A stretch of 64,000 nt of DNA from Candidatus Omnitrophota bacterium (lineage in GTDB: Bacteria; Omnitrophota; Omnitrophia; Omnitrophales; Aquincolibacteriaceae). A model generated the notes under the pieces. It was given only the letters and a program-made list of their open reading frames with translations, ran no database searches and was not told the DNA's origin. The translations under genes were made by a program, and so were the position numbers. Below are positions 6,943 to 61,188 of the stretch, one piece after another. The stretch is taken from the NCBI GenBank assembly GCA_022711115.1, contig JAKLFP010000006.1, forward strand, positions 86,214-150,213, written 5' to 3'. The stretch's first letter is position 1, and every line of letters begins with the position of its first letter.

Positions 6943-7163
6943 CTTCTTTTTTGTAACTCCAATGAGGCTTGGTATTTAGAGCATGTAAAAGTTAACACAT
7001 GTTTTTAAGTCTTACAATGGACTTATAAAATTTATTTATAAAATATAACAAGCTTTGGATAAAAAAAACTATCTTAAAATAGCATTATTATTCATAAAAT
7101 CAGCAACCTGCTACCTGGAGTTATTTATGAAATCCTTGTGATTTTTAACAATATTTTTGAGAC

Positions 7164-25992: not shown

Positions 25993-28900
25993 TTACGCGC
26001 TTCTTGCCATCGCGAACTGCGCTTGGACTTCCGTCACAAGCGTATTGATGCGGTCCCCAGCAAGGGTGAGGAAATTCTTGAGCATTTTAGGCATCACCAG
26101 CATCGTATCCGGCCATTGCGCTTTCAGGGCCACGGCCAAAGGTTCGCTCGCATAGGCCAATGGCTTGAGATTTAAAGATAAAATACCGGTACTGCGCAGA
26201 CGCGCGGCTTCTATATCCAGGAGTTTTCTCGCTTCATCCAGATGATCGGCTGGAAGGATCGGCGGCCGATGGGCTTGGGCAAGCTGGATATTGATTTTTT
26301 CAAGGAAGCCGCGGTCTGCGGCATTACGTACTAATACGATAACAGGCGTATCGCCGAAAATCGGACGGATAGCCGCGATCAAGCCATGATCCAGCGCAAG
26401 TTCAGGAGCAAGGATCAAGGCATCGGAGGTGGAAATTGTTTTAATCCCAAGGGCTTTAAGCGCTTGGGTGAAACGAACTTTGTCCAGAACCTGTTGAGCC
26501 TTTTGCACCATAGAATCCGGCAAAAGCGATATGGCAAGTTCCGCCGCGTTAAAGGCATAAGCCTGAAGCGAAACAAGGCCATCAGTCAGCTTTTCCGTTA
26601 CTCCTTCGAAACCTTGCAGGTTCCCGCCACCTATTTTTCTGTTTTCCCTGATCAGGTCTTCGATAGTTTTCACGGCAACACGCTCTGGCGTAAAAGTCGT
26701 CAAAGTAACCGTAGGAAGCGGAACAGACAAAGGAACATTTCCAACAACGGCTGCTGTCATGGTGGGTGTTACCGTATGAATCGCCATGGTTTGCCGCACT
26801 TCCGAACGTGACGCCTTTCCTTTGTCTGCCTGTAATTCAGAATGGATAGGTTTAAGATGTAAAATTTGCGCATGATCCCCATCCCTGACCGGTACGCGAT
26901 GTTTCCAACCCGAAAGCAAGTTATCGCGTTCTCCATAGTTTTCCCAGGTTAACATATCCACTACTTGGTAACGGACGCCCGGGTCGATCATTCTTTCAAG
27001 ACCGTTTGTAAGTGTTGTCGATACTTTCCCGTCACCGGCTAATTCACCCTCCTGAATGCCGAAAATAATCGAGGCAAAAACCATTTGCCCAGAATCACTT
27101 TTCCTTGCGAAAACAAGAGAACTCTGATTGGAAGGATCAAAAACTGTCCATTGATGTCCTTCAGCATCGGAAAGATTGTCTCCAAAAACAGCTTTGATCT
27201 CTGTGACTGCCTTCCGAAGTTTTGAGTAATATCCCGGGTTCCAATGTGCAACTTCGGATTTTTCTAGAAGTTCCGGTCTAAAAAGAGCTATCAGGGTCAT
27301 TAAGGGCTTTATGTTTTCTCCAAAGTAATGGGCCGCATCTTTAGCCGAAAAACTGGCCATGATCGCCAATTGTTCAAAAAAGTGGTCCGACCGTACAACA
27401 CCGTCTGTTAAAGTGTACCCTCTGCCTTTTTGGCGGACGAGTTGTTTCATAAGCGCCATCGCAGAGGTTTCACGGTTTCGGATCTTTTCCGCAATATTGG
27501 CAACTTCCGGCAACTCAATGGCCTCCCATTCTTGGACTTCCACAGCGATGGGCATCGAGATCGACGCAGGAACTTCCGAAGCGACTTCATCGCTATGTTG
27601 AATGGTGTGCTTTTTCTCGTATTTGGGGTCCGAGATTCGAACAAGAGGAACATTGCCCGTTTTTCCGACCAACCCGGCAAAGATAGCCGGATCGATGGCG
27701 ATGGAAGTCCGAGACTTGAAAAGTTTCCCCCCGCTCGAGGGGACTTCTTCTCTCACAGGAGCACCTGTATTAATATTCACCTGAAGCGGTTTTCCTCCTC
27801 GTGGAGTAAAAATGAAAGATTGGATCTCGGTGCGCCGGCTCTTTAGGGGTTTGGCGGCCGGATGACCTTCAAGGTAACGCACAATATAAACAGCCCAAGG
27901 CTGATATTTGGGACTGACGTTTTGCGTCAATTCTTTTCTTAGTTTATGGGCTTCCGCGGGAGAAGCTTGCATGTAACGTTCAAACCAATCACCCGCCATA
28001 CGAAGCAACAGTTCTTCTGTCAGATCCAAAGCTTCCAAATTAAGCCGGATTCTTGTCTTTTCATCTGCCGTTTCCGCTTCCGCGGCTAATTGTCCGATCC
28101 GTTTTTTAAAGGGCTCCAATCCTGAAGAAAATTTGGTGAGGACTTGCTCGCGTAAATATCTGAAGATATCATCGTAATAAACATGATGCCGTAAGCTGTT
28201 TAAGGCTTCAACGCCGCGCGAAGAAGGGCTTCCCGTGGGCTGCCATGTTTTGATTTCTCGAAATGAACGGAACATCCCGAAAAGCCCCAAGCCTTCAGCT
28301 GAATGTTTTCGGAATCTGCTTAAACCCTCCCACACAAAATCAGGCGCCTGCACAGGAACCGCATAATCGGAAAACTGATATTGAAGCTGGCTAAATAACG
28401 CTTCCCGCTCTTCATTTTCCTTGAGCATATTTTCAAACAAATAGGCGTGCCCCATGGCCTGTCCTGTCACCATATCCACACGCCAGGCGGCCGCTACGGA
28501 TTGATACATACGTTCACGGCGGGTCGCAGGATCTTTTCTTAATGCTTTGACTGTTTTCAAGGCTTCAAAGAGACTGCGGGCCGAAGGGCGCCTCCCCCCG
28601 CCTTCCTGGCTACTTTTCTCGCTATCGTCATAGGCTACAAAAACACCGCTCAAAATCTCCCAGTCACCGCTTCTTAAACGTTCCCTCAAAATGTCCTGAG
28701 TGATCACTTTGGTGTTCGGTTCCCCTTTTTCATTCAAGACATCGATCATCGCCCCTGTTTTTCTGTCGCGGATCACCCAAACCTCGGGGTTGCTTCCGGC
28801 AAAAGGTCCGACAACTTCGCCTCCGTTGGCCATGACTTTCATCATGCTCGTGGCGGAAGCTTCCAGATCTTCATCGGACAGCATAACTCCTGCTTGGGCT

Positions 28901-31900
28901 CCTCGAAAAATAATTTGCGCTTCGTAATAGGTGTAATCTTCGAGAGTGGCTATCCGGTCTTCCAATCCGAGAAGTTCCGTCATAAAACGTATATAAAGAA
29001 AACGGTCATGCGCGTCGTCTGCAAAAGTACGCCCGCCGATCAACAGGCGAGACATGGTACGCCGCAAAACTTCAACTGCCGGCTGGTTTTTAAGACGTTC
29101 CCGAAGCCCTTCAAAATCATTTTTATAGCGTCCATGATTTTGATCCCTTCCATCTCTATACGCTTTCCAAAAAAGAAAAAGTTGATCGAAAGGCCTTGCA
29201 AAAGGGCCGGAAAATTCCACTTTAAGCCCGGCTTGAGTCACCGCTTCTTCCACTCTTCGTTTGAGCGTTTCTTCGGCTTCTACGGCTGTCATGATAGGTT
29301 TTTTTATCTTTTGGGCGGCTTCGTCTGCGGCTTTGGCAGCGGTGTCTTTCAATCTTTCTTCATATTTATCCGGACCTTTATAAGGTACCTGGCGTCTGAC
29401 ATTCGATGAAATAGGATCGCCAAGAAGCAGATCGCGGGCTTTCCCATAATTTTGTTCAAGTGTCGCCCAGTTTTCTGGTCGGTTTTCTTGAATCGCTGTC
29501 GAAAAAAGTTCCTGCATTTCTCTTAAATGTCCCGCCAGCTGCGTGTCATCTAAATGGCGTTCCGTTTGATAATCTCTAAACGTGCTCCCAAGCCAGTCGC
29601 TCGCGCCTTTGAAACCGCGTTTTTCGCGGAGCCAGATCAGAAGCTGGGCTGCATCGGCCGCGCTGACCCATTCATTTTGAATCTTGAATTGTTCGCGCAG
29701 ATCCGAATGTTTTTCAAGCTCCTGGAAAAATTGCCGGTCGTTGGCTTCTGAAGGAAGTCCGTTTTCCGGTTTTGGGATCTGAAGTTCTTGCTTAAAACGT
29801 TCGATCAAAAGCCTTCTTGCCGGAGACTGCCAACGCGGCAGAAAAACACCGTTCGTACTTCGAATACCTTTAGAAGGATCATAAAAACCTTTGACGCGAT
29901 GCCATGCGGCGCGAAAAATATTTTTTAGAAGCGCCGGTAAGTGTTCCACAAGATTGACGCCGGAAATGAGATGAAAAACCTCTGCCGTAAACCCGGCAAT
30001 ATCGATCATACCGTCATGAACCAGCGTGGAGCGCAACCATTCGGGGAATCCCAAAAGCTCGTAGTGACCTTCCCAGGCTTCAAAAAGACCCGGACGAAAA
30101 ACCGTATGGTTCAGTGTCACTCGCTTCGCACTCTTGAGATGCCGCACCGGGAGGCTCACGAACACTTCATGGTCCAGAAGAATGATGTTCTGGGGATTGT
30201 TTTGATTTTCAAGGATTTGGATCAGACGTTCGCTCGCGGCGCTGAAGAAAGCCATATCAATTTCGCGATTACCCGTATCGTCGTAAACCTCCAAAAAGGC
30301 CGGCGCTTCTTCTTGTCCATTCGGACCTTTGACATAGGCGTCCAGATAATACTGCGGTGATTTGTGAAATTGAAAATAAGTTTTGTAAACCCGGAAAGAG
30401 ACCGTTCTGGGAACTCCTCTCACGGGAAGTGTGACCTCCAAGGCAATATCGGTAGGATCTAAAAACTTTTTGATGATCTGACCGAGAAGTTTCCGCTGAT
30501 GATGATCATAACCTTTGCCGGGCTTATTTTTGATGAAGTTCCAAAGCGGATGAATCCCGGTTACATTCATCCCGAGCGCAGCCCAGGCTTCAAAAAGGTC
30601 CGGCATCAAAGCTCCAAGGCCGCCTGTCAAAGTTGTTTGGGAAGCTTCCCCTGCAGTCCAAGCGCTCATCTCCGCAGCGATTTTTTCCAGAACAGGCATC
30701 GGAAGACCGCATTCGAATTGCCGGCTATAAATATGCTGTTTATGAACTCGGGGCGTATTAACTTCGACCCACTTTGGCACCTTTTGCTCCCGCAATTCTG
30801 AACGTGGAAAAGACGGGGTTATCCCGAGTGTTTTGAAATCAATATTGATCAGGCGGGGATGGCTTAAAAAATCCAACGCGACATCCCAGGATTTCAGCGC
30901 AAGACCCGCTGCGACAAGATTTAAAACGGTCCTGCGGTACAACTCAAAATCCGGACGGTCGACAAGCTCATAAGCTTCCATGCCCTCATAGAAAGATCCA
31001 TGGCCTGCAGCGGCAAGCTTTTGGATCCCTGCCAGGAAATGGGTCTTGGTGTTTTCTTCGAAAATCTTTTTTCTGACCCAAACGATTGTTTTCCCTCTCA
31101 CACCGTAATACCAGCTTGTCTTCATATCCACTTCGACAAATTCATCTGGCTCCGACGGCCGCTCATAGGTCACAAGCCACTGAAGCATACCGGCTAAATA
31201 GTTCGGAGTAATAACGGAATGGTCTATCAAGCTTCGCACCTCGGATCGCCGGTAACGAATGGTTACTTTGGAATTGTTGATCACGGTGTTTTCCCAACCG
31301 CGGGAAGAAGCAGTGACCGATTGGGTTCCCCAGCTTACGGAAACAAACCGGTATCTATTCATATCTGAAATGCCCGCAGCCCTGATTCCGTCAGCACCTT
31401 CAAAATGATTGTCAATGAATTGCCTCACGGTCAGTCCGCGCGGCACATTGATAAAATTGATTGCGATCAGATTTGAAGCGGGCGCAGAAGGTTTCGGCAT
31501 CTCTTGTTGTTTAGGCGCCGGCGGAAGTATTCCCATAATCTTCGCCGCCATTGCTTCCCCGGCAGCTTTCGCTTTTGTTTCATCCGCCACAGTTAAAGGT
31601 ATTTCTTTTTGAACTGGTTCGACGGGTGTTGTTTTTACCGTTGGCACAGACGGTGTATTCCGGGAAGATAGCGCGGCAGCTTCTTCGGTTTTGGACAAAG
31701 CTTGTATGACAAAATGGAGCTCATTCGTCCACGGGTGATCAGGTCGACGGTCTAAAATAGTAAGCGCTTGGATCCGATGGAGAGGATAATGCTCAGGCTG
31801 GTCTCGAAGCATACGGCGCACCGCTTCAGCAATACGTTCCGGAGCTTCGCCCATGCCCACATGATGCACAAGCTTGCGATTGCTATAGCTTGTATCCGTG

Positions 31901-34900
31901 GACGTTTCAAAACTAATCTCATCAATCCTCATCTTCACCTGGAACATAAGCCGATACACAGCATCCCGGACCTCAGAAGGCGTACGTGCAAACACCTCCA
32001 TAGACTTGGATTCTGCTAATGTTTCCGAAACCTTTTTTGGGCTAATTTTCTCTGAAACAGTCATCACGTCGATCTTCTGCCCGATTTGAAACTCGGGTTT
32101 AGGCGCGACAGTCGGTTGAAGTGTGAGCGTGATCTCGCCTTTGTTGTTCTCGGCAGTCAATAAGAACCATCCGTATATTTCTTGGTGGGATGGCACATTC
32201 GCGAAAAAGTCGTTGCCCGTATCGTTCCAAAATGCTGAGGATTGAATCCGGCGACCTGCGCTTTGATAAATAACTTCAATGGCGTGGTCCCGCGCGATAT
32301 TCCACCGATCACCGATTTGGCGCAATGCGTCGGAAATCCGGTCAAATGTCAGCGGTTCAGAGGTCCACGTGTCTTTAGACGGAGCATAAGAAACGCTTAC
32401 AATGCGGTTCGCGTTATAACCGGTTGAACCGGCTTTCTCTTGGATATAAAGCGTCCCGCCTATCAATGCCTCGAATTTTCCTTCGTAAACAGTTCCATCC
32501 TGCATGGAAAGCTTCAACATCGTCCCCAAAGCGACATTTCCCGCTTGAGCATCCGTTTTAAATTGCGCGAACGGGACTTTGGCAAGCAACGTTTCCGCTA
32601 TGTTTTTGGCCATCCCTTCCGGCTTTGGTTGCTCTTCACCGCGCACTTCCGAGCGTTTGGAATCCACATAGGTTAGTGAGGGAGAGAGACGATCATCGGC
32701 AAAATGCAGCCAAAAAATTTCGCCTTTCTGAATAAGAATATCTCGCCATTCCATCGGACGGCTATAAGCATAACGCTGGCCTTTGCTAGAAACCTCTGCA
32801 CCGACCAGGGCCTTATCACTGAGCGAACGAAGACGGATAAGAGATTCCATCAGATCCGCGAGAGACGATTTCTTTAACGCCTTGACTTTTATGAGTGCTT
32901 CCGAGCCATGGATTATCTGGACAGCCTGCTGCGAAGCGCTAAGCCCGGAACCCGGACTCACTAGGCTTCTCAATTCCGAGCGGGACTCGGCGATGAGGAA
33001 GGAATCGCCGGCTCCGGCAATTTCGAAAGTTTTCAAATCCGGATTCAGAAAAGAGCGCCGGAACGCTTCGCCCAAGGACATCCGTCCCGCACTATCCAAT
33101 TCAATAAAAATGGCCCTGCGATGAATTTGATCCATATAGTCTCTTGCCGCAACCGGATCTTGAGGCGTTGTTTGCTCAACCATTTGCTGCCATGCTGTCG
33201 AAGGATAAACCCGCAAGGCTTTGCCTGCCTTTTCCGATACAGCGATAAGTTGAGTCTCCTCTCCTAACATGGTTCGGAAAGGTGCGGGAAGTTGGATCCT
33301 ATTTTTATCATCCACCTTGAAGGTATAAGAGCTGGTGAAGATCACCGGCGCCCGCACTTCAGAGCGGGAAATCACGGGTAAGAGACCTTTATATTTAAGA
33401 TCAGGTCTTTGTATGCCAAGAGAAAAATTTGAACTGCCATCCGCGTACCGGATCACCCATGGTTTTTCGGTTTTGCTTTGGGCTTCCAGCAGTTCAGAAA
33501 GCGATGGTAACTTCACCGGTTGGCCGTTCTTGAACCATTCCAAAACTCGGTTTTGCTGCGACGTATAGCCCAATTTTTTTGCTAGGGTCTCGCGAAGCGC
33601 TTGGGAATCCATGAACTTCATGGGCCAAGGAGCTTTAAGATCAGGCGGGAACCTTGGATTGGTGCGAATCCCGTATACTTGTTTAATTTCACCATCCTGG
33701 GTGATAAAAATTGCCTGGAGAGGGAAACGGCCGTCAAAGCTGCTTCGTAATTGGTCACCGTCAAAAAACCTGGTTTTAAACCGGCCAAAGTGAACGGAAA
33801 TGTTTTTGGCGCCGGTCCGATAAACGAGTTCATGGTCAGGTCCAAGATAAAATCCTTCGAATTCCGGGCTTCTCGGGTCCTGCGTTCCGTTGAACGCGAC
33901 AACTCCCTGCTCAACCGGCTGCTGATACTTCTGCGCCAAATCGAACAGGATTTGTTCTCCTTCAAAATAAGTGACATACGGATCAAGCGCCTGCGCGAGG
34001 TCCCTGTCCCCGAAAAGATTGCCGACGATTTTGACCGTAACGGGTTGCACTGCCTTTGCCCCTTCCGCTTGAGCAAGGCTGATGATCTCGATGCTGTTCG
34101 GATCCTTCGCAGGTTTAAAATCCACGCCCTCGATCAAATAAAGTTTGTCGCGCCAGGCCTGAAGCTGGCTAATCAATTCATTGATAGTGATCTGCGGTCC
34201 GGTTAATGGTTTCAACGTAATCCTCGATTGCCCGATCTGTATCCACCTTGTCGGGCTCGTCACGGACCGGCTGTAAAGAACTTGGGTTTCCGGTAACGCA
34301 ATGGCCGGTTCGGGTTTCTGTTCAACGGGTTCTGTTTTCTTGACTTCTTCTACAGGGGCTTGCGCTGTCTGAACCGGGGTCTTGGGAGAAGCAAATCCCT
34401 GCCGTTGCTGAGCCGCTTTCTCACGGAGTTCTTGCTCTTTCTGAGCTACTTTTGACACCCTGACATCCCACTGCCCGCTACGGCGGGCGTCGTCTTTATT
34501 CATTCGCACTTCAGAGCGGGAGGTAAGCTCGACAATTTGGACGGTAAGTCTTTTCATTTTCTCTTCAGCGGAAGTATTGAGTAATCGATAGGCCGTAAAC
34601 GGTCCCGCAAGCATTTCCGTCACTTCTTGAAAGCCATATTGCCTGACCTTCGGAATAGCGTAATTGAATTCCACAACCGTGACAGTTTGAGAAGCGCTAT
34701 CGACTTTAGCGATCACTCTTTTCCATGAAATGGAGCCGAGATTGGAATTGTCGATGCGCCAATCCTTAGAGATCAACACGCTATTTTCTAAAGTATCGAA
34801 GTCCCCTGCCGAGGTTTGAGAAGTGATCCTGCCGCTTGCCGTATTATTTTCAAGGAGCTTCAGAAGATCGCCATACGGGATGAATCTAACTTCCCCTTCC

Positions 34901-37900
34901 GCTTGCGAAATAACAAGATAAGATTTGTATGCGTCGTGTTCTTGTTCTGCGACAAAAAAGCTAAGATCGCCTGTGGTTTCATCTTTTTGGAAGTCAAGGA
35001 TCCGTTTCCCGGCAAGGAATGTTTCGATTTCTTTTTGAAGTTCCGCGGCAGAACGCCCATTCGCGGCCTCAAATTCAACCTGCCGTTCACCTTGCTTCAC
35101 GATTAATTTTTGTCCGGATTGTTCAATGATAATTGCCGGCGGCGCTGAGTAAGGCCCACCCCACGGAATGCGTCCTTTTCGGGACAGGCTGCGTACTTCC
35201 GAGCGCAACGCAGGTTTTTCCTGCGGTAATTTTCCCAAAACCGCTCTGGCCGCATCATGAACAAGGCTTTTTCCTTTTTCATCAAGACGATTTCCTGAAA
35301 CAAGCTGCTGGACAACATTGGTCACACGGGCATTTACAAAATCGATGAGATCCTGGACCGTCAAACCTGAAAATTCATAATAGGCCGGTTTGCTTTTGGC
35401 CTGCAAGGCGGCTTCATCCGTTTTTGTGATTTCGATGCCGAATCTTTCTTCGAGAGACTGCATCAGACTCATTTCATCCAGGGAATCCATGCCGAGATCT
35501 TCTACTAACCGATCCGTCAGACGAATTTCTTCCTCGATCGCGGGAGGTAAAACCTCTTTTAAAATATCGATGACCTCTTGATCAATATTTTCACTCACCG
35601 TTCCCCGCATTTCCGAGCGACTGGCCTTTCTTCTTTCATTGATGGCGTGCTGAAAGGCATTCGAAAGTATTTTGTAGGGATTTTGCGAATAAAAATAATT
35701 TTGCCACAACCAATGCGCCAGACCTGAAATCCCGATAAAAATCATGCTAAACGCAACCACGCGGGGGATCTGTTCCTCCGCCGGCAAGAAGAATGTTGCC
35801 GTCCCGATAAGAGGAAATATAATCCCCACCAGGACCTTCATAAAAGCACTGCTCCGTCGGAATTGGAGTTCAGCAAGAAAAGAGGTGGGGTTACCGTTTT
35901 CCGCTTTTTTGTAATTGTCGGCATATCGGTTTTTCATTTTTTCCCACAATTGTTCTAAGCGGTCTAAGGTTATCCGGTTTTTACTATTTGATCGGAGATA
36001 TGCTCTGACCGATTCATCAAGAGAGCGCAATTCAGACCTTGCTTCCGTAAAGAGAACAGGATTGATTAAGTCATGGCTTAAATTAAGGGCATCATATTTC
36101 AAAGCTTTTTTTTGCTGTAAAAGTTGAATGCTTTTTGAAGGAATAGTTCGAAACTCAATACGATCAAACTCTGGGACTGTTTCTGTCCTGACGTTTTTGG
36201 TCGGTTTGATGCCCATGGAAGATATCCAGCCTTCAAAGGTTGTTTCCCCTGCTTCTTCCTGAAAGAAGTAAAAACGAAGTTTGAACGGCCCTTGAACAAT
36301 GTCCTCGGGTCCCAATTCGCGGGACCGGATGGTCCCGGCAGCCCCCGCTAACCATGAAAACCACACAAGATGGGAAAATTGTGTCCTTGGCAAATGTTCG
36401 TGGTGGGAATTATAAAGTTTATCGGGAAGTGCGAGATAGTGCTGTACCGCCTTACGGTTCTTAAACAACGTGATCATAAGACCTAAGGATCCTTGCTCAT
36501 CACCTTCAAAGTCATGGGCATCCAACCGAAGCTCCCGCTCCCATCCGATGCCTCCATTTCTCATATTCCAAACAAGCGGTTGGTGGACCAGATCCGACAG
36601 TTTGAATAAAGGTCCCTGAACAGCCCGTACTTCGGAACGAGTTTCCAGCTTCCTTGGCATAAAGAAATTTCCCGCATCGTCCTTCGAATCCCCCATAGAA
36701 AGCTGCTCGATGCCTTTAAAAACTTCGGCAAAAAACTTTTTTGCTTCGGCCTGTCTTATAGATTTTGAAGCGATAGAAAATTCCACTGTGATATCACGGC
36801 CATAGCTATTCAGCATCGCCTGCGTGTGATAGTTCAAGCCTAAAAGGGTCATCTCGTCCCACGACAAAAGATTAAATCTCTGTCCGTCGCTGCGAATAAT
36901 GGCTGCTTGAAAACTCTTGTCTTGAACAAGATATTTTCTTTCGAGAAGATGTTTGGTTCTGGCGGTAGGCGCCGTGTGAAGCCCGAGAGCGTTTCCGATG
37001 CTGTATTTCTTTGCCGCGATCCAGCGATCTCCTATTTTTGTCAGCTTAAAATCAGTTTTTCTTAATTCGGAGCGCTGATCGTTCATGTAATTCGGCTTGC
37101 GGGTCACCGGAAAAGCAGGCTCGGCGGTTTTTCGGGCATATGCAAGCAGGTATTTCTGCATTTTTTCGTATTTTGTACCGACGTTGATCGGGCCTTCGAT
37201 CCCACGGATGGGCTCCGTCAGTGTGAATCCCGCGGCCCGAAGAAGTGTTTCGAAATAACTCGGCGTGACAGTAAAGACCCAGCCATTGAGAAGTCGATCG
37301 CCGCTTAATTTTTGATTTTTAGGCTTGAAGATATTTCCCCCCGGGGCCCATCGGACAAAAAGAGGCGCGTCTTTTTCGAGAAGGTCCCTGAGCGAAAGTA
37401 ATGCGTTTAGCTGTTCTTCGGGCGAAAAATAAAGGAGCACATCGCTGATAAAAATCCCTCCGAAAGTTTTCCCGTTGAAATCAGCCGTTCGGAAATCGGC
37501 GGTCATGAACCTGTCTTTAGACATGTCCCCGAAAGAGGGATCTTCGAGAGCGGCTTTGATAAGCGACGGCGAGATGTCCGTTCCCCAAAGGTCGGTAAAT
37601 CCCTGTTCCTTAAATTTCTTGAGCGCCCTTCCGATGCCCATACCCACATCAAGAATGCTTTTATCCTTGCCGGCCATCAACGCCAGGAACTGATCGATCG
37701 TTTCTTGATGCGGAGAAACGTTCCAATCGCGGAGCTTATGGCGTTCAAAATCAAGGGAGAATTCATCATCCGTCCAGTACCGGACATTGCTGATCGCCGG
37801 GTCGGGGGGTGATTTTCTGAAGGTTTCTACCGCCGCCTGGAATTCCGGAGAAGTTTCCATCAGCGTTGCCAAAACCCGGGCAAATTCCGGATGATGTCTT

Positions 37901-49900: not shown

Positions 49901-52900
49901 ACTTGCTGTTTGATCTTTTCCTTAATCTCAAACGCTATTCGTTTTTTCGCCCCGGGATCTTTTTCTGCCTTGTATTTGAGCCACATGTCCCGCGTATCCA
50001 CAAACGCGATGTCCACGTTCACGCCGCCGAACCACTTCAGCAAAATCCTTTTCCCTTCCGATACCGCGCGCATCACGGCCGGCCACTGCAGTCCGATCCC
50101 AAGCACCGCGGAAGCGTCCGAAAAAATCACGATCTTTCTTTTTTGAGCCGGGAAAGACAAAGGCTTTTTGCCGTAAAGCGGCGTTTCAAGGTCCAGGCCT
50201 TTTTTCAGCGCGTCCGCGATCGCTTCACAAACGGCTCCCACGCCGGGGGTATAAACCGTCTTCATCGCTTCGATCACATCGACCGGGACAATGCCGTGCT
50301 TAAAAAATATGTCGATGAGTTTTTTGTAAGTCTGATATTCCGATGGGATCGCCGCCGGCAAGCTGTCCTCAGATGTCTCCCGAACTTCAGACCGGGGTCT
50401 GCTTTCCATACTAACCGCTACTTTGCAATTATTTGTGTCGGCCCGGGTCCTTACGCGGACATTTTCCCATCCCAATCGGGTAAGGTTTTTGAATGGAATA
50501 TCAAAGACAACCCAAGTTGTCCGATTTGAATCTACAATAAGCGAAGCTTCTTCTATCAATGCGTGGATATCTCCGTAGATATCAGCAGGCCTTTTCCCGG
50601 AAGGATCCACGTATAACCGCATAGGGATCCGGATCCGATCGTCCGGCTCAATGAGTTCGACTTGAAGTTGTTTGTGATCCTTAAAGAAGGATTGCTTAAC
50701 AAAAATATTGACGGCTTTGTCGTTTGTTTCGACGAAACCCGGAACCAAAAGGCTGATATCCTGTGCGGGTAAATGCCATTGGGGGCCTATGAAATCTCCC
50801 AGCGGCTCCCGAAAACTCCATGCCGTCAGCGCAAGAATTAACAACGCCATAGCCATACTTAGGTTTAAGAAAATAGCCCGTGAACTTAGGTTTGGATTCC
50901 ACCAGCGCCTTATCTGGGTGTCTGTGCGTGAAGCTTCTGGGATGGCAGCAACAGAACCGCCTTTCGGGGGCATGGTTCGTATTTCGGAACGGCGTCCAAA
51001 AGCTTTGGTAAGCGCTTCGGCAAGGGCTTTCGGATTGTCCCATGGAGCAAGATGTAATGAGGAATCTTTTTTGGGGTTTTTAAAAACAATTTTTTTCTGG
51101 AAAGGTTCAAGGCTTCGTTTTTCTCCTGACTGTATGACAGACACTTGTTTTGAGTTCAATCCAAGCGCCCGCTGTAATGTTAAAACAAGGTCTTCCGGAC
51201 TTTGCACAAAATCCAACGGGGCCATGTCAATGCCCACCCAAATACCGTTTCCAGCCTGATGAAAAGTTACCTCATACCCAAGTACTTTTGCCGTCTCACC
51301 CCGCATTTCGGAACGGCCCAGGTTTTGGCTTGGATCTGTTCTACCATTTGCGCGCTGATGAACGTTGATGATCGTTTGGGCGATCTCCATGGAGTTCATA
51401 ACAAAACCGTCTTTCATCACCGGTTTTACATTTTCGGTAACAAACTCCGAGGGACCCTGAGCGTAAACAAGCAACTGGCCGTCTTCGCTCTCAATAACAT
51501 GAATCCCATTCGGCAATGTCCTTCCCATACCTTGGATCAATCCTGCGAGCTGTTTTGCCGAGAAAACCGTGGTGTAATCACCGATGACCGCCGCAAGAGA
51601 TGTCGGATCTTTCCGGCTAGCGGCCCTCACTTCAGCCCGTTGAATGGCAGCAATTGCATTTTTTGCACTTAGGTGAACGGATGGATCTGAATCATTCAGC
51701 GCTGAGTAGAGCGCTGAAAGCGCTGGTTGGGCCTGGGGACCAATTTCCCCAAGTGTGATAATGGTCTGCTCACGAATCTCCGGAGAAGGGTCCCTCAATT
51801 GGGGCATTAACTGCCAAACTGCATCGCCCGCCTCAGAACCCAAGGCGCCAATAGCGGCAATGGCCTTTAAACGCACCTCTTTTTCCGGGTCGCCGATTAA
51901 ATGAAGCCAATCACTCACATTTTTCGGCATAGCCGTTTCAGACGTACTCCTCATTTCAGAGCGATTGTCCGCGGGATGTTTTCCTTCGAAGTGTGATGGT
52001 TTTTTGACAAAGGTGACTTTAGCGGTTGTCCCTTTAGGATAAGGATGTTTCAGGGTTTCGGGATTTTTTAAATCAACTGCTTTATGGCCGGGAGATGGAA
52101 TGATGCTGGCAATGTATTCACCGCCGCCTAGATTTTCACGTACCTCAACGGCTCGCTTGATAGCCTTGAGCGTCATGGTTGCCTCAAGTTTATAGATTTT
52201 AAAATGAAGGGCGTCGTCAGCTTTCACTTCCGTTAGCCCTTTGACCTTCGTCCTCATCTCGGACCTGGCAGAACGGCTTTTCAGGGTATCTATTTTTCTT
52301 TGACCCTCTTGATCTTCCGGTTGGATATAGCGGTGCAGAAAATGCCAAAGAAGAGATTCAGGAGTGAGAAGCGACTGGTCCCAAACCGGCATGTCTTTAA
52401 AAATCGTCTTGAATCGTTTCAGGACGTTGAATACAAAATCATTCTGCTTTCTCTGGAATTGCTGGGCATAGGCGATTTCGATTAACGGCCCCAAAAAACG
52501 GTTAAGAAACGGCAGTTCATAAGCAAGTTGTGTATTAATGGAACGATGCGCTTTTTTCATGGTTTTAAAGCTACGTTCCGTTTCTTCGAATCTCATCTTT
52601 TGCCATCTCCGGATCACCTCGGCAACCGTATGCTCCGGTCCCACCACCAAACTTGCGAGGATATCCCGCATCAAGCGGATGTCATAACCTGTCAGGATAT
52701 TATTGCCGTAAAGCAGCATATCAGGACTTGTATAAAGAAAGATCCCATAATGTGTTTCTTCAGGTTTCAAAACGGCCAACAACTCATCACTCAAAGCTTC
52801 AACCCCTGTCACAATCAAGGTCTCGTCCGGCGCAAGCTGCAAAAGCTGTTTTTCTCCTCGGTCGTCTTTAACGCGGATTTTCTTCCCGTCCAAAGCATTA

Positions 52901-55900
52901 CGGACATCCCACGGATTGGCAAATTCAAGGTCCAAATGTTTCAGCTTAAGACCTGCTTGAGCGAGCATTTCAGAGAGCTCTTCGGTGATTCCATGTTTGC
53001 CCGAAGCGCGCATGCCACCGATCAAGATCACCTTGGGTTTTTTCTCAAGGATCTCACGGATAACCTCCTCGGTCTGTTGCTTTTTGGATCGATCCACCTT
53101 TTCGACCAATGCTTTTCTTTCCTCTTCGGTTTTGATCGCTCGAAGTTCGTCGAGAGTTTCGGGCAGAAGTTCCAGGCTCATGCCTTCAAGGTCATAAGGT
53201 TTTTGGCCCTCAAGTTTTTTCGCCCATGCTTCGGGATGGCGCGCCAATTCCGCATTCATAATACGGATGACGGCCAAAATAAAGGCTGCTTTTCGAAGAC
53301 TTATTTTTTTCGCGTCGGCAATACGAACAACATTGTTAAAAGCGCTGATAATTTTATCTTCCATAATGCGGTTCACGGCATCTTCCGGCCATTGTTCACG
53401 AACAAGGTTCTGCCGCCATTCCAGGTAAGAAACGATCACGCCGCCCGCATTGGCAACCACATCCGGAACAACGATGACACCTTTTTGCTTCAAAATTCCG
53501 TCGGTTTCCTTGTTTTTGATCGGTCCGTTGGCTGCTTCAATCACCAATTTGACCCGGAGCAAACGGGCAATGCGTTCATCAATGGTATTTTCGAGTGCGG
53601 CAGGCACTAGGGTATGAACCTCGCTGGCCCAAAATTCTTCCTCGGAGATCACTTTCACTTCTTCGGGGTATTCTTTTGCATAATCCAAAATGGTTTTCCT
53701 GGGAAGCATGTTGCCGGCCGCGTCTTTCCTGGGTGCCAGGAATTCCAGAATCTTGGGAATGTTCAAACGTTCACCGGTTTTGGTCGCAATAGCGCCTTCT
53801 TTTTCTTTCACGGCCATAATCCTTGCTCCATTTTCATGAAAGATTTGCGCGCCATGCCCGCCCACATTGCCGAGTCCTTCAAACGCAACGGTTTGTTTTT
53901 CTATCTCTGTCCCGATGCCGAGCCGGGCTCCAAAAACTTTGACTGCTTCGCGCCAGACAAAAAACACCCCACGGCCTGTTGCTGCAGTCCGACCATGTGA
54001 ACCGCCTTTTTTCTCGGGCTTGGCGGTCACCACAGCAATGGGAGATCCTTCTACCATTGGAATTTTATGCTTTTCAGGATTTGCTAAATACGCGTCTAAA
54101 TAGGGTGTGTCGACATCTTTGGAATTGCTTAGTTTCCACCGAAATTCGATTGTTTTTTTGAATAATTTGTCATGCTTAATCTTTAAAAATTCATCTGCCA
54201 TCCATGCCATTTCCTTTTCTCCAGTGCCGACATCCGGAGCCGGAATATCATTCAAAGGACCGATCGCATCGGCATCTTTGGCAAGCAAAGCCTTCACATA
54301 ACCTCGAGTCAATCGTGCGAGCTCGCCTTCTGAAAGCTCGCGCGGATTCACGGCAATGCCTCCCTTGCCCCCTCCGTAAGGAAGCCCTGTGATGGCATTT
54401 TTGATGCTCATCCACATGGAAAGAGCCTGCACATCCTCAAGATCGACATTCGATTTATAGCGCACACCGCCTTTTCCCGCCCCCCGCGCATCATTGTGAT
54501 AGACGCGATAGCCTTTAAAGATCTTTGTGGTGCCATTATCCATACGCACCGGAATATTTACTTCAAGGATACGATAAAAGCTGAGGAGCCATTCAAGAAG
54601 TTGGGGATCAAGGTGGATCAGCTCTGCGACCTCCGAAACCTGACGCTTTGCATTATCAAGGGCCACCTGACCTTCGGATGCTTTTGCCTGTGCTTCTTTT
54701 TCTGCTCGCACTTCGGACCGTCCTTCAAGTTGGCCGGGCATGTCGGCCATCAAAATTCCCTCGTCATCTGACAGCAACGTCTGCTGACCGCCAGGCGCTA
54801 CATAGCGCGACACCGGCCTGCTGAGTTTTTTTCCTCCGCTGAAATTCAGGAAAGCGATCGGTTTCCGGTTGAATTTTTCAGAAAGTTTGGAAGCCCAAAA
54901 ATCAGCGCTAAACTGATCCGTTCCGGCCACTACCAAAATCTGGTCTGCTTCTGATAATTCGTTAAATAACCTGTCGGGAGGTGAAGTGATGTCGATGGCC
55001 CATTCACTCTCATTGCAGATGAGCAGTGCCAGTTTGAATTTTTGATTCAATAAAATGATTCGCGATTCTTGGTTATGAGCGTATTTCTTGAATTCTGTTT
55101 TTTGAACTCGACCCGTTCCATCGGAAAGGAAAAAGACATAGAAAGCCCTTAAGTACTCCAGCCCTTCGGGAGGGATCCTCTCCAAACCGTAGCCGACCGA
55201 AATTCCAAGACGCCGGACCGTTTCTGAGAGAATTCTTTCTCTTTCTTTTTCGCGTTCCGGAGTGTAGCTGTTCCAACCCACAACTTCATCCGGGCTTTCA
55301 GGGAAAACAACAAGATCGGGGGCATTTGTTCCGAATTTATCTTTGAGCCCTTGCAGAATCCCCGCCATTCTGGCTGTGCTCGCATCAAAATCATTTTCCT
55401 TCATTTGGACCCAAGCGATCCTTGGAGCGTCACTTTTTGCCTTTTCGTCAAGCCACACAATCTGTGCGGGTAACGCTTCTTCTTTTTTTCTCACTTCGGA
55501 ACGAGAAGAAACTTCGGGCGGCTGTTCTTCAAAAAGAAGATCAAGGGCCAACTGACCTTCTTGACCATAACCTTTCTGCCGAAACAGATCTTCTAAGCGA
55601 GGGCGTTGTACGAGGTCGCTGAAATCCGCATCTTCGGAAATTTGGTCTTGTATGGTCTTGCGAAGCAATTCCAGAATCCTTCCCGCGGATGAATAATCAG
55701 AACCACGTTGAGTCTTACGAATAAGAGAATCTGTTAACGCCGTAAAAATATTAGCGAGAAAAATAGTGTCTCGAGCTTCCTGAGAGATATTGGCAGGAAC
55801 ACGGCTGGCTGGTTTTTGATCCTGCATTTTTGCCCTCGCAATAGCACTTTGAATCCAGTCCATGACCGTTTTCTTGGTTTTGTTTTCAGTCCTCACTTCA

Positions 55901-58900
55901 GAACGAACTGTGGCAGAAACCGTCATCTTTTCAAGAAGCTTTTGAGGTACAGGACGGCCCTCCTCAAAAAAATTGGCTGTCGCCCAATCATAAATGGCAC
56001 CCCCTACGGATTTTTGGGCTTGGAAAAAGTTTTCTTCTTTATTGCCGGGAAATTTTGATAACGTTTCGCCGGCTACCTTTAAAAACTCACTTTCAAGAAA
56101 TGTTTGCATCTCCTTTTTTCGCTTGGATAAATCCTGAAAAAATTTTCTTTCTTCTGCACTTGCGGTTTCTTCTATGTTTTTGGGGCGTTCAAGGAGTCTT
56201 TCGATAAAAAGCTTGGCGTAGAATTGCGCCATTTCGAGGTTAATCTTGTCCCATTTTAAATTTTTAAGCTCTTCGAGGGCTTTCTGCGCTTGCTGCCCCG
56301 CCGTCGTCAAAGCATCTTTTTTGGATAGGGCCAATTTTTGCCAATATTCGGAAGGCATACTCGCGATCATTTCGGGCGTTAGGTCATCCGCGCGAGTTGC
56401 GTTTTTGATTTTTTCCCAAGCAGCTTCGTTTTGTGCTAGGAATGCAGCTTCAGCTTCTCTTTTTTCAGCTTCAACGGCTTCCAGCTCTTCGATCTCCTTG
56501 TTTGTCACATCGAGTAAGAGGCGGCTCTTTTTCTCTAGAGCTTTTTGTTTTAACTCAGGAGTCGGCAACGCTTCGATGATTTCTTTTGTGATTTCTCCTG
56601 GCTCTGTTGCGTTCTGAACTACGGTGAGAGCATTCTTTACAGCCTGTCGCTTATTTTGCTCAACAACGCGCATGTAGTCTGTTTGAACCTGACCCATTTG
56701 CTTTGCTGTCCTGGTTTCTCCTTCTTGCATCAGTTTGGCTGTCGCTAATGCCTTTTTTTTAGCCCTTGCTAATTCCTGCCAATATCCGGATGGCATCCTT
56801 GCGATCATGGCTGGGGTGATGCTTTTGCTGCTTGTGGCTGTCCGGATGGTTTCCCAAACTTTTTTATTTTTTTCTGCTTGGACATCACCGGATCTCCGGA
56901 CTTCAGCTTCTTCAGATTCCATCTTCGAAATTTCCGCAGCTGTTATCTCCGAGAAAAGACGGCTTTTTGTCGCGATGGCTTCCTGTTTCAACGCCTGCGT
57001 CGGCAGTGCGTCGATAATTTCTTGCGTGATTTCTCCGGGCTCCATGGCACGCCGCACTACTTCTAAGGCATTTTGGATGATTTGCCGATCGTGCGCCTGA
57101 AGTTCGCGAGTCTGTTGCTCAAGCAAGGCTGTCTGACGAGCTTCACCGGCCGCTATGACTTTCCCCCATGACAATTGAGAAGCTTTTATTGCCGCTTTTT
57201 GGGCCTTTTGAACAGCAGCTTCTTTTGCAGCTTTTTCATCGGCCTTTTTCTTCGGTAAGGCAGCTCCCTGGGCAAGTTTCGACTTTTGAGCTGCTTCTTT
57301 GGATTTCTGAGTTTCTTGTTTCTCCCTTTCTTTTTGTTCCTTGGCCAACAAAGTAGCTATCTTCAAGGCTTCTGCCTTTTGAGCCGCCTCCTTGGCTTTT
57401 TGAGCCGCTTTTTCTTCCTCTTCTCTTTGTTTTTTTTCTAAAGCAGCTATTTTCGCAGCTTCTGATTTTTGAGCTGCTCTTTCTTCTTTTTCTTTTTCCT
57501 TTTTTTCAAGAGCGGCTAATTGGGCTTCGGACAAGCTTGGCTTTGCCGGTCGCGAAGTAATAATCTTTGGCTCTCTCCTTTGAGCCCGTTCAACCAAATA
57601 AGTTTTAAGAACCTCGCTTTCGGGATACATCTGCTGCAACTGGGTCATGGCACCATGGATCTGCTCCATGGTTCCCGTTTTTTGGATCTGGCGCACGCGG
57701 GCTTCTACTGCATTCCGAACGGTTTGAATATACATGTCCCTGTCACGCCGCTGCCTTTGTTTGATCTGTTGCAGATCCAAAAGTTTTTCGGCTGTCTTTT
57801 TTAAATCAGGATGTTTCGCGACCCACTGAGCCAATGCTTCTTGGAAGCGCCGGCCAATAAACACATTTCTTTTGCCAAAAAAAACATCCGCATTCCCTTT
57901 CCCATAGATTTGATTGATCTTCCGTCCGATACTTGTTGTTTCGATGACGCGCAGTTCGTTGGCGAGTATTTCAAGAGGAACGGGCATATTTTTGAATTGC
58001 GGGTTTCCATAATCGCGGATTCTTTTCAAAGCGCTATCCACTAATTCTGTGAAATCTTTATTTTCACTCGGAAGATGCAGTCCCCAAACTCCCATCTCCC
58101 TGAAATCCACTTCAAAACGGTGGATCGTGGAAGCTACAATCCCCGTTGTTTTTTCAAGGGCTTCCTTCAAACGAAGAAGCGTCAGCTTTTGATCTTTCGC
58201 GAGTTCTTTTTCGAGGTCTTCGACAGTCTTTATCACGGTATCGAACGTCAGCGTGACATGGCCGAGATTGACCTTTGTTTCCTTTGCTTTCTTTGCTCTT
58301 ACCTCGGAGCGAGAATGCGAAAGAAAAAGTTCCTGGATAGCCGACTTCTGATAATTCATGTCGGCGGGCCAGTCCTTTCCAAGAACGCCGTGGGCCCATT
58401 CGTGAAGATCCGCAAGAATATCCAAGAAAAATGCTTCTTTGGGATGGAGATCCGCAAGCTCGTGCGCGTAACCGATAATAGAAAACCGTTTGAGTGAATC
58501 AAGAAAAGTCAGTGCGCCATGAAAATTTGTATCCGCCGTACCGGCCTCAAGCGCCAAAAAAAGATCTTCCGATTCCTGGATCAATCGCTCAAGAAGTGGC
58601 CGCCAAATTTGATGCGCGGGAGTAGAGCTCGAGAGATTCCATTGTTGCAGGACCTTTACAAGTCGATTGTTGGTCCGGTCTAAAAGGCTCTTCAGCTCCT
58701 TGATGGATTTTTCATCCGCAGGCGAAAAAGAAATATTCCTGGAAAAAACAACCCCATAGAAATTTTTATCCGGTATCGGAGAAATCCCAGGGACATGCTG
58801 CCTGGTGAACATATCCAATGCCTCAAGCCATAAACCTGAAAGCTGATAATAAACTGCTCCAAAATGCGCCAAAAGCACGTCACCCTCTTTGGCATTCCCT

Positions 58901-61080: not shown

Positions 61081-61188
61081 GAAATAGGTTGTCTTTCCTT
61101 ATTTCCGATCTGGATCTTTAGGTATGAGAAAACTCGCTGAAAGCGTAACATATTTTTTTATAATTTCAAGTTCTTGAAAAAGGATTTA

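Follow-up and report, generated by a model that had tools for sequence, protein, structure and literature searches.

Giant genes of the phylum Omnitrophota reach 147,155 codons. Their products have been described as 'Archaeovorins' (West-Roberts et al. 2023, bioRxiv 10.1101/2023.11.21.568195) and as the 'multi-enzyme metabolic cluster' class of proteins of at least 10 kaa (bioRxiv 10.64898/2026.06.07.730766). Both preprints already suspected post-translational cleavage and pointed to C39 and S8 peptidase domains, yet neither described a junction motif, and both stated that the cleavage points were unknown. Missing knowledge of the cleavage points prevented the splitting of these proteins for analysis (10.1101/2023.11.21.568195), while internal signal-peptide calls were discarded as chunking artefacts and enzyme content and predicted topology were found to contradict each other (10.64898/2026.06.07.730766). 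Here we describe a gene of this kind from a 64,000-nt stretch of Candidatus Omnitrophota contig JAKLFP010000006.1, hereafter the window, on which all coordinates are given. It is a polyprotein-like open reading frame (ORF) of 11,695 uninterrupted codons (25993-61080, minus strand), consisting of a head domain, about 40 cassettes and a conserved tail, and its cassettes are set off by a pentapeptide, R-S-E-[VMLIA]-R, which we lean towards reading as a cleavage signal.

Like the described giants, this ORF comes from the same phylum, exceeds 10,000 amino acids (aa), tiles unrelated enzyme Pfams (starch synthase, methyltransferase, HEAT, epimerase) and carries a signal peptide and scattered transmembrane (TM) segments. 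By its Omnitrophota origin, its length of at least 10,000 aa and its many distinct Pfams it falls into class 1 of the 2026 preprint. In contrast to those giants, no C39 or S8 domain was found in it by Pfam or NCBIfam, and the predicted TIKI-like head, the Ala-terminal tail and the cassette-shuffling unit found here do not figure in the two preprints' descriptions. Multi-enzyme giant ORFs are known; new are the signal at the junctions and its variants, the cassette as a unit and the frame of head and tail. A literature search found no report of the motif as a protein signal. The sequence-only reading that had picked out the motif knew of no described bacterial system bearing it, which holds for the literature searched, although the multi-enzyme Omnitrophota ORFs themselves had already been described.

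Flavivirus and pestivirus polyproteins carry many complete proteins per ORF, divided by short consensus junctions with a basic P1 and a small P1' residue. Viral polyprotein sites co-evolve with a lineage-specific protease, and a cytosolic site lies directly upstream of internal signal peptides that are removed by signal peptidase. The giant ORF resembles flavivirus-type polyproteins in that it holds several complete proteins and that its short motif is conserved among relatives while the flanks have diverged. It differs in its location on a cellular chromosome, in a cargo of housekeeping-type enzymes and secreted proteins, and in an ORF devoid of any chymotrypsin-like or papain-like protease; its cleavage is a prediction. 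The resemblance to MARTX toxins is looser. They are likewise giant bacterial proteins with independent effector modules that are freed by inter-module cleavage, as may happen here. Their processing relies on an internal InsP6-activated cysteine protease domain (CPD), which cleaves after Leu, and goes along with RTX repeats and type I secretion. In contrast, neither CPD nor RTX was found in the giant ORF by Pfam or NCBIfam, nor were signs of type I secretion found; the giant ORF has an N-terminal Sec signal peptide in place of a purely C-terminal signal, and only 5 cysteines in 11,695 residues (0.04%). Among the MARTX effectors, RRSP belongs to the TIKI-family site-specific endopeptidases (PMC6254334). 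Its 2His/2Glu constellation is the same as that of the head domain described below, but the TIKI domain there is cargo and not the processing enzyme. Finally, ordinary gene fusions, polyketide synthases (PKS) and nonribosomal peptide synthetases (NRPS) also have long ORFs of many domains, in which flexible linkers join the folded units. Unlike the gene under study, they lack a conserved pentapeptide at each unit start and genome-specific variants of it, and they have neither cleavable signal peptides inside the chain nor unrelated complete proteins that shuffle freely. Apart from a single acyl carrier protein (ACP), no PKS or NRPS domain was found in the giant ORF by Pfam or NCBIfam.

Motif and cassette boundaries in the giant ORF

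The architecture of the ORF is that of an Omnitrophota head-cassettes-tail gene. Pfam and NCBIfam resolve it into a string of unrelated, essentially full-length proteins, with more than 15 distinct Pfam families and none dominating; many of the cassettes are complete proteins, while others are small repeat modules. They include a glutamate dehydrogenase (GDH), malic enzyme, UDP-glucose pyrophosphorylase (UDPGP), a GalE-type epimerase, an inositol-monophosphatase/CysQ-family protein (IMPase), a methyltransferase, an ACP and MraZ, as well as HEAT modules, a glycogen-synthase-like region and secreted proteins with signal peptides of their own. Since all score far below the NCBIfam equivalog cut-offs, we regard them as divergent copies.

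Translation of the ORF reproduced exactly the site counts of the sequence-only reading: 33 strict sites (17 RSEVR, 7 RSEMR, 5 RSELR, 2 RSEIR and 2 RSEAR) and 6 one-off variants (RAEVR, RFEVR, HSELR, PSEVR and 2 RNELR), all 39 in the frame of the single ORF and spanning 26794-26808 to 59188-59202. Its estimate that far fewer than one site would occur by chance was likewise borne out, as composition predicts 0.074 strict sites and 2000 residue shuffles gave a mean of 0.086 and a maximum of 3. Chance and low complexity as the source of the motif are ruled out by these shuffles and by the low background in 520,815 aa of other ORF segments. It had further claimed that the sites lie between domains and never inside them, and none of the 39 falls within a Pfam envelope (P ~ 7e-4). 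The two RNELR sites (aa 6322, 42103-42117, and aa 7683, 38020-38034) belong to the interior of a conserved paralogous domain, 40 aa short of the actual junction, and are thus probably not junctions. The description of the flanks as not conserved needs qualifying: they are unalignable at an orthologous junction, but they do show a weak bias, with S/A at -3 to -1 (2-2.7x) and E/A/G/S at +1. A junction-spanning stretch gave a pLDDT (predicted local distance difference test score) of 34 in single-sequence structure prediction, too low to be informative.

The motif marks the native start of the cassettes. The complete GDH cassette (aa 2126-2618, 53227-54705, minus strand, as are all sites and cassettes of this ORF; Pfam scores of 197 and 166 bits) has as its closest database relatives ordinary stand-alone GDHs of 416-424 aa. 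When 120 stand-alone GDHs are projected onto the ORF, their Met-1 falls at aa 2128-2136, 3-10 residues past the RSEVR at aa 2121-2125 (54706-54720), and their C-terminus at aa 2618. In other cassettes the end of the motif lies 3 residues from the canonical N-terminus for MraZ (RSEVR, aa 9239, 33352-33366; sites are numbered by their first residue), 5 for IMPase (RSEMR, aa 5767, 43768-43782), 8 for ACP (RSEMR, aa 8488, 35605-35619), 10 for HEAT and 19 for malic enzyme (RSEVR, aa 3563, 50380-50394). Strict sites also precede the UDPGP plus epimerase cassette (RSEVR, aa 4139, 48652-48666), the methyltransferase cassette (RSEIR, aa 7724, 37897-37911), the glycogen-synthase-like cassette of 1,332 aa (RSELR, aa 10093, 30790-30804), with which a database search returned 2 matches only, and the conserved tail module (RSEVR, aa 11425, 26794-26808).

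The first junction after the head domain is an RSEVR at aa 627 (59188-59202), followed by RSEVR at aa 924 (58297-58311), aa 1726 (55891-55905) and aa 1860 (55489-55503) ahead of the GDH junction. Farther on come RSELR at aa 5474 (44647-44661), with a TM segment 8 aa later, RSEMR at aa 5618 (44215-44229) and RSEVR at aa 7226 (39391-39405). The stretch between the methyltransferase and MraZ cassettes holds RSELR at aa 8003 (37060-37074), RSEVR at aa 8148 (36625-36639), RSELR at aa 8348 (36025-36039) and, past the ACP junction, RSEVR at aa 8626 (35191-35205) and at aa 8855 (34504-34518), the latter followed by Met. Beyond MraZ lie RSELR at aa 9367 (32968-32982), RSEVR at aa 9476 (32641-32655) and RSEVR at aa 9945 (31234-31248). 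The status of two variants as junctions is uncertain, namely HSELR at aa 5248 (45325-45339) and PSEVR at aa 9701 (31966-31980).

Four HEAT-type cassettes of about 101-108 aa each stand in a run (50992-52251, aa 2944-3363). Each is bounded by the motif, at spacings of 101, 108, 108 and 108, so very small modules are also punctuated singly. The sites concerned are RSEMR at aa 2939 (52252-52266), RSEMR at aa 3040 (51949-51963), which opens a cassette of about 108 aa, the variant RAEVR at aa 3148 (51625-51639), in register with the 108-aa series, RSEMR at aa 3256 (51301-51315) and RSEIR at aa 3364 (50977-50991).

Four paralogous cassettes open directly after the motif with Sec signal peptides. These are, with a slash at the predicted signal-peptidase site, VGVVSKLAMAGLLALGLQVQSALA/Q (42757-42828), which directly follows the variant junction RFEVR at aa 6080 (42829-42843) and is predicted to be cleavable; GKLAITALIGLMLSSVGGWA/Q (41923-41982), after RSEVR at aa 6362 (41983-41997); AKTISKIALLGFLVLGLQAQSALA/Q (40108-40179), after RSEMR at aa 6963 (40180-40194); and MSAISKLVITGLLVLGLQAQSALA/Q (38674-38745), after RSEVR at aa 7441 (38746-38760). 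All four have a textbook n-h-c layout and end in SALA/Q or GWA/Q. The N-terminal Sec-type signal peptide of the ORF itself (MGYFKKLKRLL...SVSYA/Q, 60979-61080), which ends in SYA/Q, is of the same design, and this design recurs in all homologs. The mature N-terminus of the four paralogous secreted cassettes (38674-42828, aa 6085-7469) reads QxTN(I/L)LMSIRKGPATNQ... Among 374 sites, the 12 residues that follow the motif held a hydrophobic segment 3.6-fold more often than random positions did, and such segments were depleted before the motif. The arrangement of motif followed by signal peptide also occurs in distant relatives, while no lipoprotein signal was found after junctions in 1,007 sites. 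The giant ORF has no strong hydrophobic segment before residue 3402. Given its N-terminal signal peptide, an uncut chain would thus put GDH outside the cell, a paradox of localisation that cutting at the junctions would remove.

Conservation, exchange and coding of the motif

We retrieved 80 related loci (L001-L080) from reference genomes, all of them Omnitrophota metagenome-assembled genomes. Downstream of their head domains we counted 216 strict sites in 148,828 aa, compared to 27 in the remaining ORF segments of these loci, which total 520,815 aa; almost all of the 27 lie in adjacent long ORFs that proved to be further polyprotein genes. An exhaustive profile search returned 9,995 clusters (50% identity) with the head domain; among the top 150 clusters, with lengths of up to 7,376 aa, nearly every one has the domain at its N-terminus. 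In an independent sample of 126 proteins there were 606 R[SAP]Ex[RK] sites, or 2.19 per 1000 aa versus 0.13 expected, and the motif recurs in most sampled members of the head-domain family. Polyprotein genes often follow one another in tandem, and every one then has a head and a tail of its own.

The motif is kept across head domains that are only 20-30% identical, while the flanks are unalignable. The junction before the glycogen-synthase-like cassette has orthologs in L004, L005, L009 and L023, and the five genomes keep R[SA]E[LVM]R at it; the upstream sequence cannot be aligned, whereas the downstream cassette aligns from a few residues past the motif. The motif is therefore conserved at orthologous junctions while its flanks drift. 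Relatives whose head domains are 45-50% identical have quite different downstream content, and the blocks that they have in common start at the motif. Among 414 high-scoring segment pairs between genomes, 57% of the starts lie within 10 residues of a motif versus 6% for random placement; the mode of the starts is exactly the first Arg (offset 0), and the ends are most frequent at the final residue of the following motif. In the giant ORF, the RSEAR at aa 5167 (45568-45582) is the end point of homology with L019, and from the RSEAR at aa 6867 (40468-40482) a 96-aa cassette is common with L023 from motif to motif. These findings show that shuffling between genomes goes cassette by cassette, with the motif as the boundary. 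Stand-alone homologs of the cassettes in the retrieved flanks of the related loci were too few for use.

Some genomes use a uniform variant of their own: L003 has 16 RPE[SA][RK], L020 has 13 RAExR, L025 has 11 LSD[SAT]R, and L049 has RSESR. Metagenome proteins add KSExR, RSDxR and RTExR. Paralogous polyprotein genes in one genome use the same variant, and on the head-domain tree RSExR is the general state, with the variants as isolated tips. A recognition site that co-evolves with a single reader would be expected to switch in this concerted way throughout a genome. Two head-domain clades carry an unrelated junction-like signature, [AGS]-[AQS]-S-L-G, in place of R-x-E-x-R (L024, L027, L028, L031, L034, L064 (JAKQXH, JACQVP) and L062; P0244, P0252 and P0254), which resembles double-glycine or Gly-P1 protease sites.

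The sequence-only reading had noted that the motif is written with many synonymous codons. At the 33 strict sites the non-degenerate positions are invariant and the third positions vary, giving a period-3 pattern, but they do not vary freely: the codon of the first Arg (R1) is CGY at 27 sites, no site has AGY for Ser, and a purine closes codon 4 at 31 (GTG, ATG, TTG, ATA, GCG), a synonymous-codon bias with Monte Carlo p of 2e-4 to 5e-4. The same bias was found in 222 sites from the other genomes (L001-L080), with R1 as CGY in 77%, and the consensus is CGY-TCS-GAR-NTG-MGG. The CGY share of R1 is 77-82% versus a background of 38%, Ser is rarely AGY, and both features persist across distant genomes; the purine ending of codon 4 takes the form of ATA for Ile, GCG for Ala and TTG for Leu. 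Codon 4 is ATG, GTG or TTG at 21 of the 33 sites here and at 41% of the 222 elsewhere. Met at this position is 6.9x enriched and the remaining codons are one-step neighbours (ATA, GTA, GCG, CTG), which fits a preferred state of Met or GTG-encoded Val surrounded by its one-step neighbours.

At the RNA level, no excess structure was found at the junctions (minimum free energy of -22.0 versus -21.5 kcal/mol at random positions, p = 0.54), Shine-Dalgarno-like sequences were not enriched upstream of codon 4 (12% versus 16.5%), and Rfam had no match in the window. We accordingly rejected RNA structure or a known RNA family at the junctions, and also an internal translation start at codon 4, many of whose triplets are not start codons. 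The earlier claim that selection acts on the peptide and not on DNA or RNA thus stands, supported by the invariant non-degenerate positions, the single frame and the three negative RNA-level tests.

Head domain, its paralogs and the conserved tail

The head domain (aa 1-560, 59401-61080) is a predicted hydrolase of the TIKI/erythromycin-esterase/ChaN/TraB superfamily with a helical insertion of about 300 aa. The TIKI fold is alpha/beta, with a central parallel beta-sheet and flanking helices, and its 2His/2Glu motif is defined as E-x-H ... E (His-Glu pair) ... H (PMC6254334). The head domain has the same predicted core, an alpha/beta fold with a central parallel beta-sheet flanked by helices, and it carries the 2His/2Glu residues, the correspondence being by sequence position only. 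D82-A83-H84 (60829-60837) would be the first Glu/Asp-x-His, with H84 conserved in 47/47 sequences and position 82 being D or E in 36/47 (Asn in 11). E112 (60745-60747; 47/47), which would be the Glu of the His-Glu pair, follows H84 by 28 residues in 46/47, the spacing of H85/E113 in Bcr135 and of H3902/E3930 in RRSP. G500-G-F-H503 (59572-59583; 46/46) would be the second catalytic His motif (GxxH), and R475 ahead of it (59656-59658; 47/47) is invariant. PF04187 ('Tiki superfamily, ChaN') matched 3 of 13 members, with a best E of 0.0046 that is below the gathering score, and aligned to R475...GGFH503, placing the GGFH on its C-terminal motif.

The head domain thus shares with TIKI, TraB/PrgY, ChaN and erythromycin esterase the alpha/beta parallel-sheet core, the His-Glu pair 28 residues apart, the GxxH histidine and the conserved Arg. 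It differs from them in its insertion of about 300 residues, in giving no significant sequence-profile match and in its association with a cassette array. Moreover, the known substrates of the superfamily (Wnt, Ras, pheromone peptides, macrolides) are unrelated to R-S-E-x-R, and the activity of the head is itself a prediction. TIKI, TraB/PrgY and ChaN are extracytoplasmic or membrane-associated, as is predicted for the head domain.

Some 560 N-terminal residues are common to the giant ORF, to a second polyprotein ORF in the window (31% identity) and to p725, a stand-alone paralog of 725 aa with a signal peptide (61396-63573, plus strand), which is encoded divergently from the giant gene and has a C-terminal extension of about 280 aa with no assigned fold. 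Orthologs resembling p725 are a conserved neighbour, at the same position, in 12 related loci, and the head domain is always fused to, or adjoins, a cassette array.

At its other end the giant ORF closes with a conserved tail module (aa 11430-11695, 25996-26793), which is preceded by the motif, ends in ...FAMARSA-stop and is 40-43% identical (tblastn) to the ORF ends of L001, L010, L012 and L021. All complete head-domain ORFs close with an amphipathic helix and then x-[S/A/R/K]-Ala-COOH, as seen in the giant ORF (ARSA-stop, 25996-26007), at the ORF ends of these four loci and in 22 further loci. Of the complete ORFs of the genome loci, 27/27 have this terminal Ala, as do 86/126 metagenome proteins; it could serve as a degron or as a signal for secretion or assembly. 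We dropped the idea that the ARSA tail is related to the motif's R-S half, as the tails do not co-vary with the motif variants.

In the rest of the window the motif occurs in frame only in the second polyprotein ORF (3-6975, minus strand), which runs off the left end of the window, has a Met at 6942 and carries its own head domain. Its four in-frame sites are RSEIR (5008-5022), RAEVR (4021-4035), RSEVR (3769-3783) and RSELR (1426-1440); the AGT serine codon that the sequence-only reading had placed at 1435-1437 lies in frame in the last of these. Out of frame, an RSEIR-coding 15-mer lies at 61097-61111 on the minus strand, 17-31 nt upstream of the start codon of the giant ORF, and three further matches lie on the plus strand (12180, 41991 and 56610); all four are presumably due to chance. 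The genes around the giant ORF are ordinary chromosomal ones (thyA, transketolase, GGT, an ABC transporter and a menaquinone gene). Across related loci, genes for an exonuclease-III-like (xth-like) protein, an SRPBCC protein and an ACT-domain protein are conserved upstream neighbours of the orthologous polyprotein gene in about 20 loci (L001-L023).

Proposed proteolysis and rival explanations

On balance, and judging from the comparisons above, the motif is probably the recognition site for site-specific endoproteolysis at the junctions of a cellular polyprotein. A dedicated endopeptidase would cut at or beside the motif and release the cassettes as separate proteins. The cut would fall after the final Arg, with an acidic P3, a hydrophobic P2, a basic P1 and a small or acidic P1'. 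It would be made on the cytoplasmic side, during or soon after translation, as suggested by the fact that most cassettes are nucleotide-cofactor enzymes and that some open with Sec signal peptides. Cassettes that then begin with a signal peptide, the head domain included, would be exported by Sec and trimmed by signal peptidase. The reader would co-evolve with its site, in whose place other genomes have uniform RAExR, RPEx[RK], LSDxR, KSExR or xSLG. For the protease, the leading candidate, albeit a doubtful one, is the TIKI-like head or its paralog p725. It leads since it is the sole catalytic domain that is always in cis, with its 2His/2Glu motif intact, and since its predicted superfamily includes site-specific endopeptidases (TIKI, RRSP).

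Several observations weigh against proteolysis or against this choice of enzyme. The sequence-only reading had placed the motif at essentially every boundary, but two boundaries lack it, from GDH to a P-loop (GxxxSGK) domain (about aa 2619, 53011-53253) and from UDPGP to epimerase (about aa 4660, 47056-47163); each of these pairs may be a genuine fusion that stays together. No recognisable peptidase cassette was found in the giant ORF by Pfam or NCBIfam, and clustering of flanking ORFs over the 80 loci gave xth-like, SRPBCC, ACT and p725-like neighbours but no conserved protease. Searches of the head domain against PDB with hidden Markov models and profiles gave no significant match, nor did Foldseek; we hold its predicted TIKI-superfamily assignment with moderate confidence, and the superfamily includes esterases and non-enzymes (ChaN, PMT C1/C2) (PMC6254334). 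As the cutter of cytoplasmic cassettes the head or p725 fits poorly, since their Sec signal peptides predict a periplasmic location, and junctions of very dissimilar type (R-x-E-x-R versus xSLG) accompany one and the same head domain. In a subfamily of 19/126 proteins that ends in -[SA]-Leu, no junction motif rises above shuffled controls. The residual codon bias within the motif is not accounted for by peptide selection alone. Lastly, cleavage, scissile bond, compartment and enzyme are all predictions from sequence. The view of the motif as a protease signal, put forward in the sequence-only reading, is favoured by each of its comparative predictions that could be put to the test (native starts, conservation, shuffling, variants, signal peptides and peptide-level selection), but no protease cassette to go with it was found in the ORF by Pfam or NCBIfam.

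We also considered whether the motif might act as nucleic acid, as an RNA processing site, an internal translation start at codon 4 or a DNA recombination site for cassette exchange. The non-random synonymous codons with their consensus would agree with this, as would the exchange of cassettes between genomes at the motif. Conservation, however, tracks codon degeneracy exactly and all sites share one frame, 36% to 59% of the codon-4 triplets are not start codons, the variants change amino acids coherently, and free energy, Shine-Dalgarno-like sequences and Rfam all gave the negative results described above; we consider a signal of this kind very improbable. The same codons bear on another idea, that the motif is the scar of a fusion between once separate genes, with codon 4 as the former start codon and little function today. 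The frequency of ATG, GTG and TTG at codon 4, the enrichment of Met with one-step neighbours in the remaining sites and the position of the motif just upstream of the projected native Met-1 are what such a scar would leave, and the bias in the R1 and Ser codons suggests shared descent. A neutral scar would nevertheless decay, yet five residues are kept across heads of 20-30% identity with unalignable flanks, all junctions in a genome switch together to RAE, RPE or LSD, and real gene starts in the window show nothing that corresponds to R-S-E upstream of the start codon. We therefore regard a scar as improbable, though less so than a nucleic-acid signal.

A better contender, albeit one we still think rather unlikely, is that the motif is an uncleaved recognition or docking element between modules, and that the giant stays one membrane-tethered multi-enzyme scaffold. 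In that case a partner (the head domain, a chaperone or an assembly factor) would bind the pentapeptide, or the pentapeptide would cap the linker. The lack of a protease in the ORF by Pfam or NCBIfam and among conserved neighbours agrees with docking, and genome-specific variants would equally fit a co-evolving binding partner. A basic P1, an acidic P3 and a small P1', as in the proposed cut, are nonetheless the typical layout of a protease site, and cleavable signal peptides right after junctions would have no role in an uncut chain. Both preprints (10.1101/2023.11.21.568195; 10.64898/2026.06.07.730766) treat these proteins as single membrane-associated giants, but implausible localisations, which speak against an uncut chain, were also remarked on by West-Roberts et al. 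(10.1101/2023.11.21.568195). Under proteolysis at the junctions the topology paradox would be resolved, since every cassette would be routed by the signal peptide that it carries or by having none.

The motif is the first concrete candidate for cut points in the Omnitrophota giants and renders the question of their processing directly testable. With the junction signal the giants can also be split into cassettes as input for predicting structure and function, and the head domain, motif and Ala tail together provide a search key for about 10,000 protein clusters. If cleavage is true, it would represent a polyprotein gene-expression strategy in cellular organisms, and the protease-site pair would be a new one with possible use as a tool. 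More tentatively, a substantial part of the Omnitrophota proteome may come from thousands of virus-style polyprotein genes, each read through a genome-specific pentapeptide and a co-evolving endopeptidase, possibly the TIKI head, and built of motif-bounded units that are exchanged between genes and genomes. If that were so, the pentapeptide would stand in for stop codon, intergenic region and start codon, and the output of these genes would be cytoplasmic enzymes, regulators and secreted proteins as free proteins.

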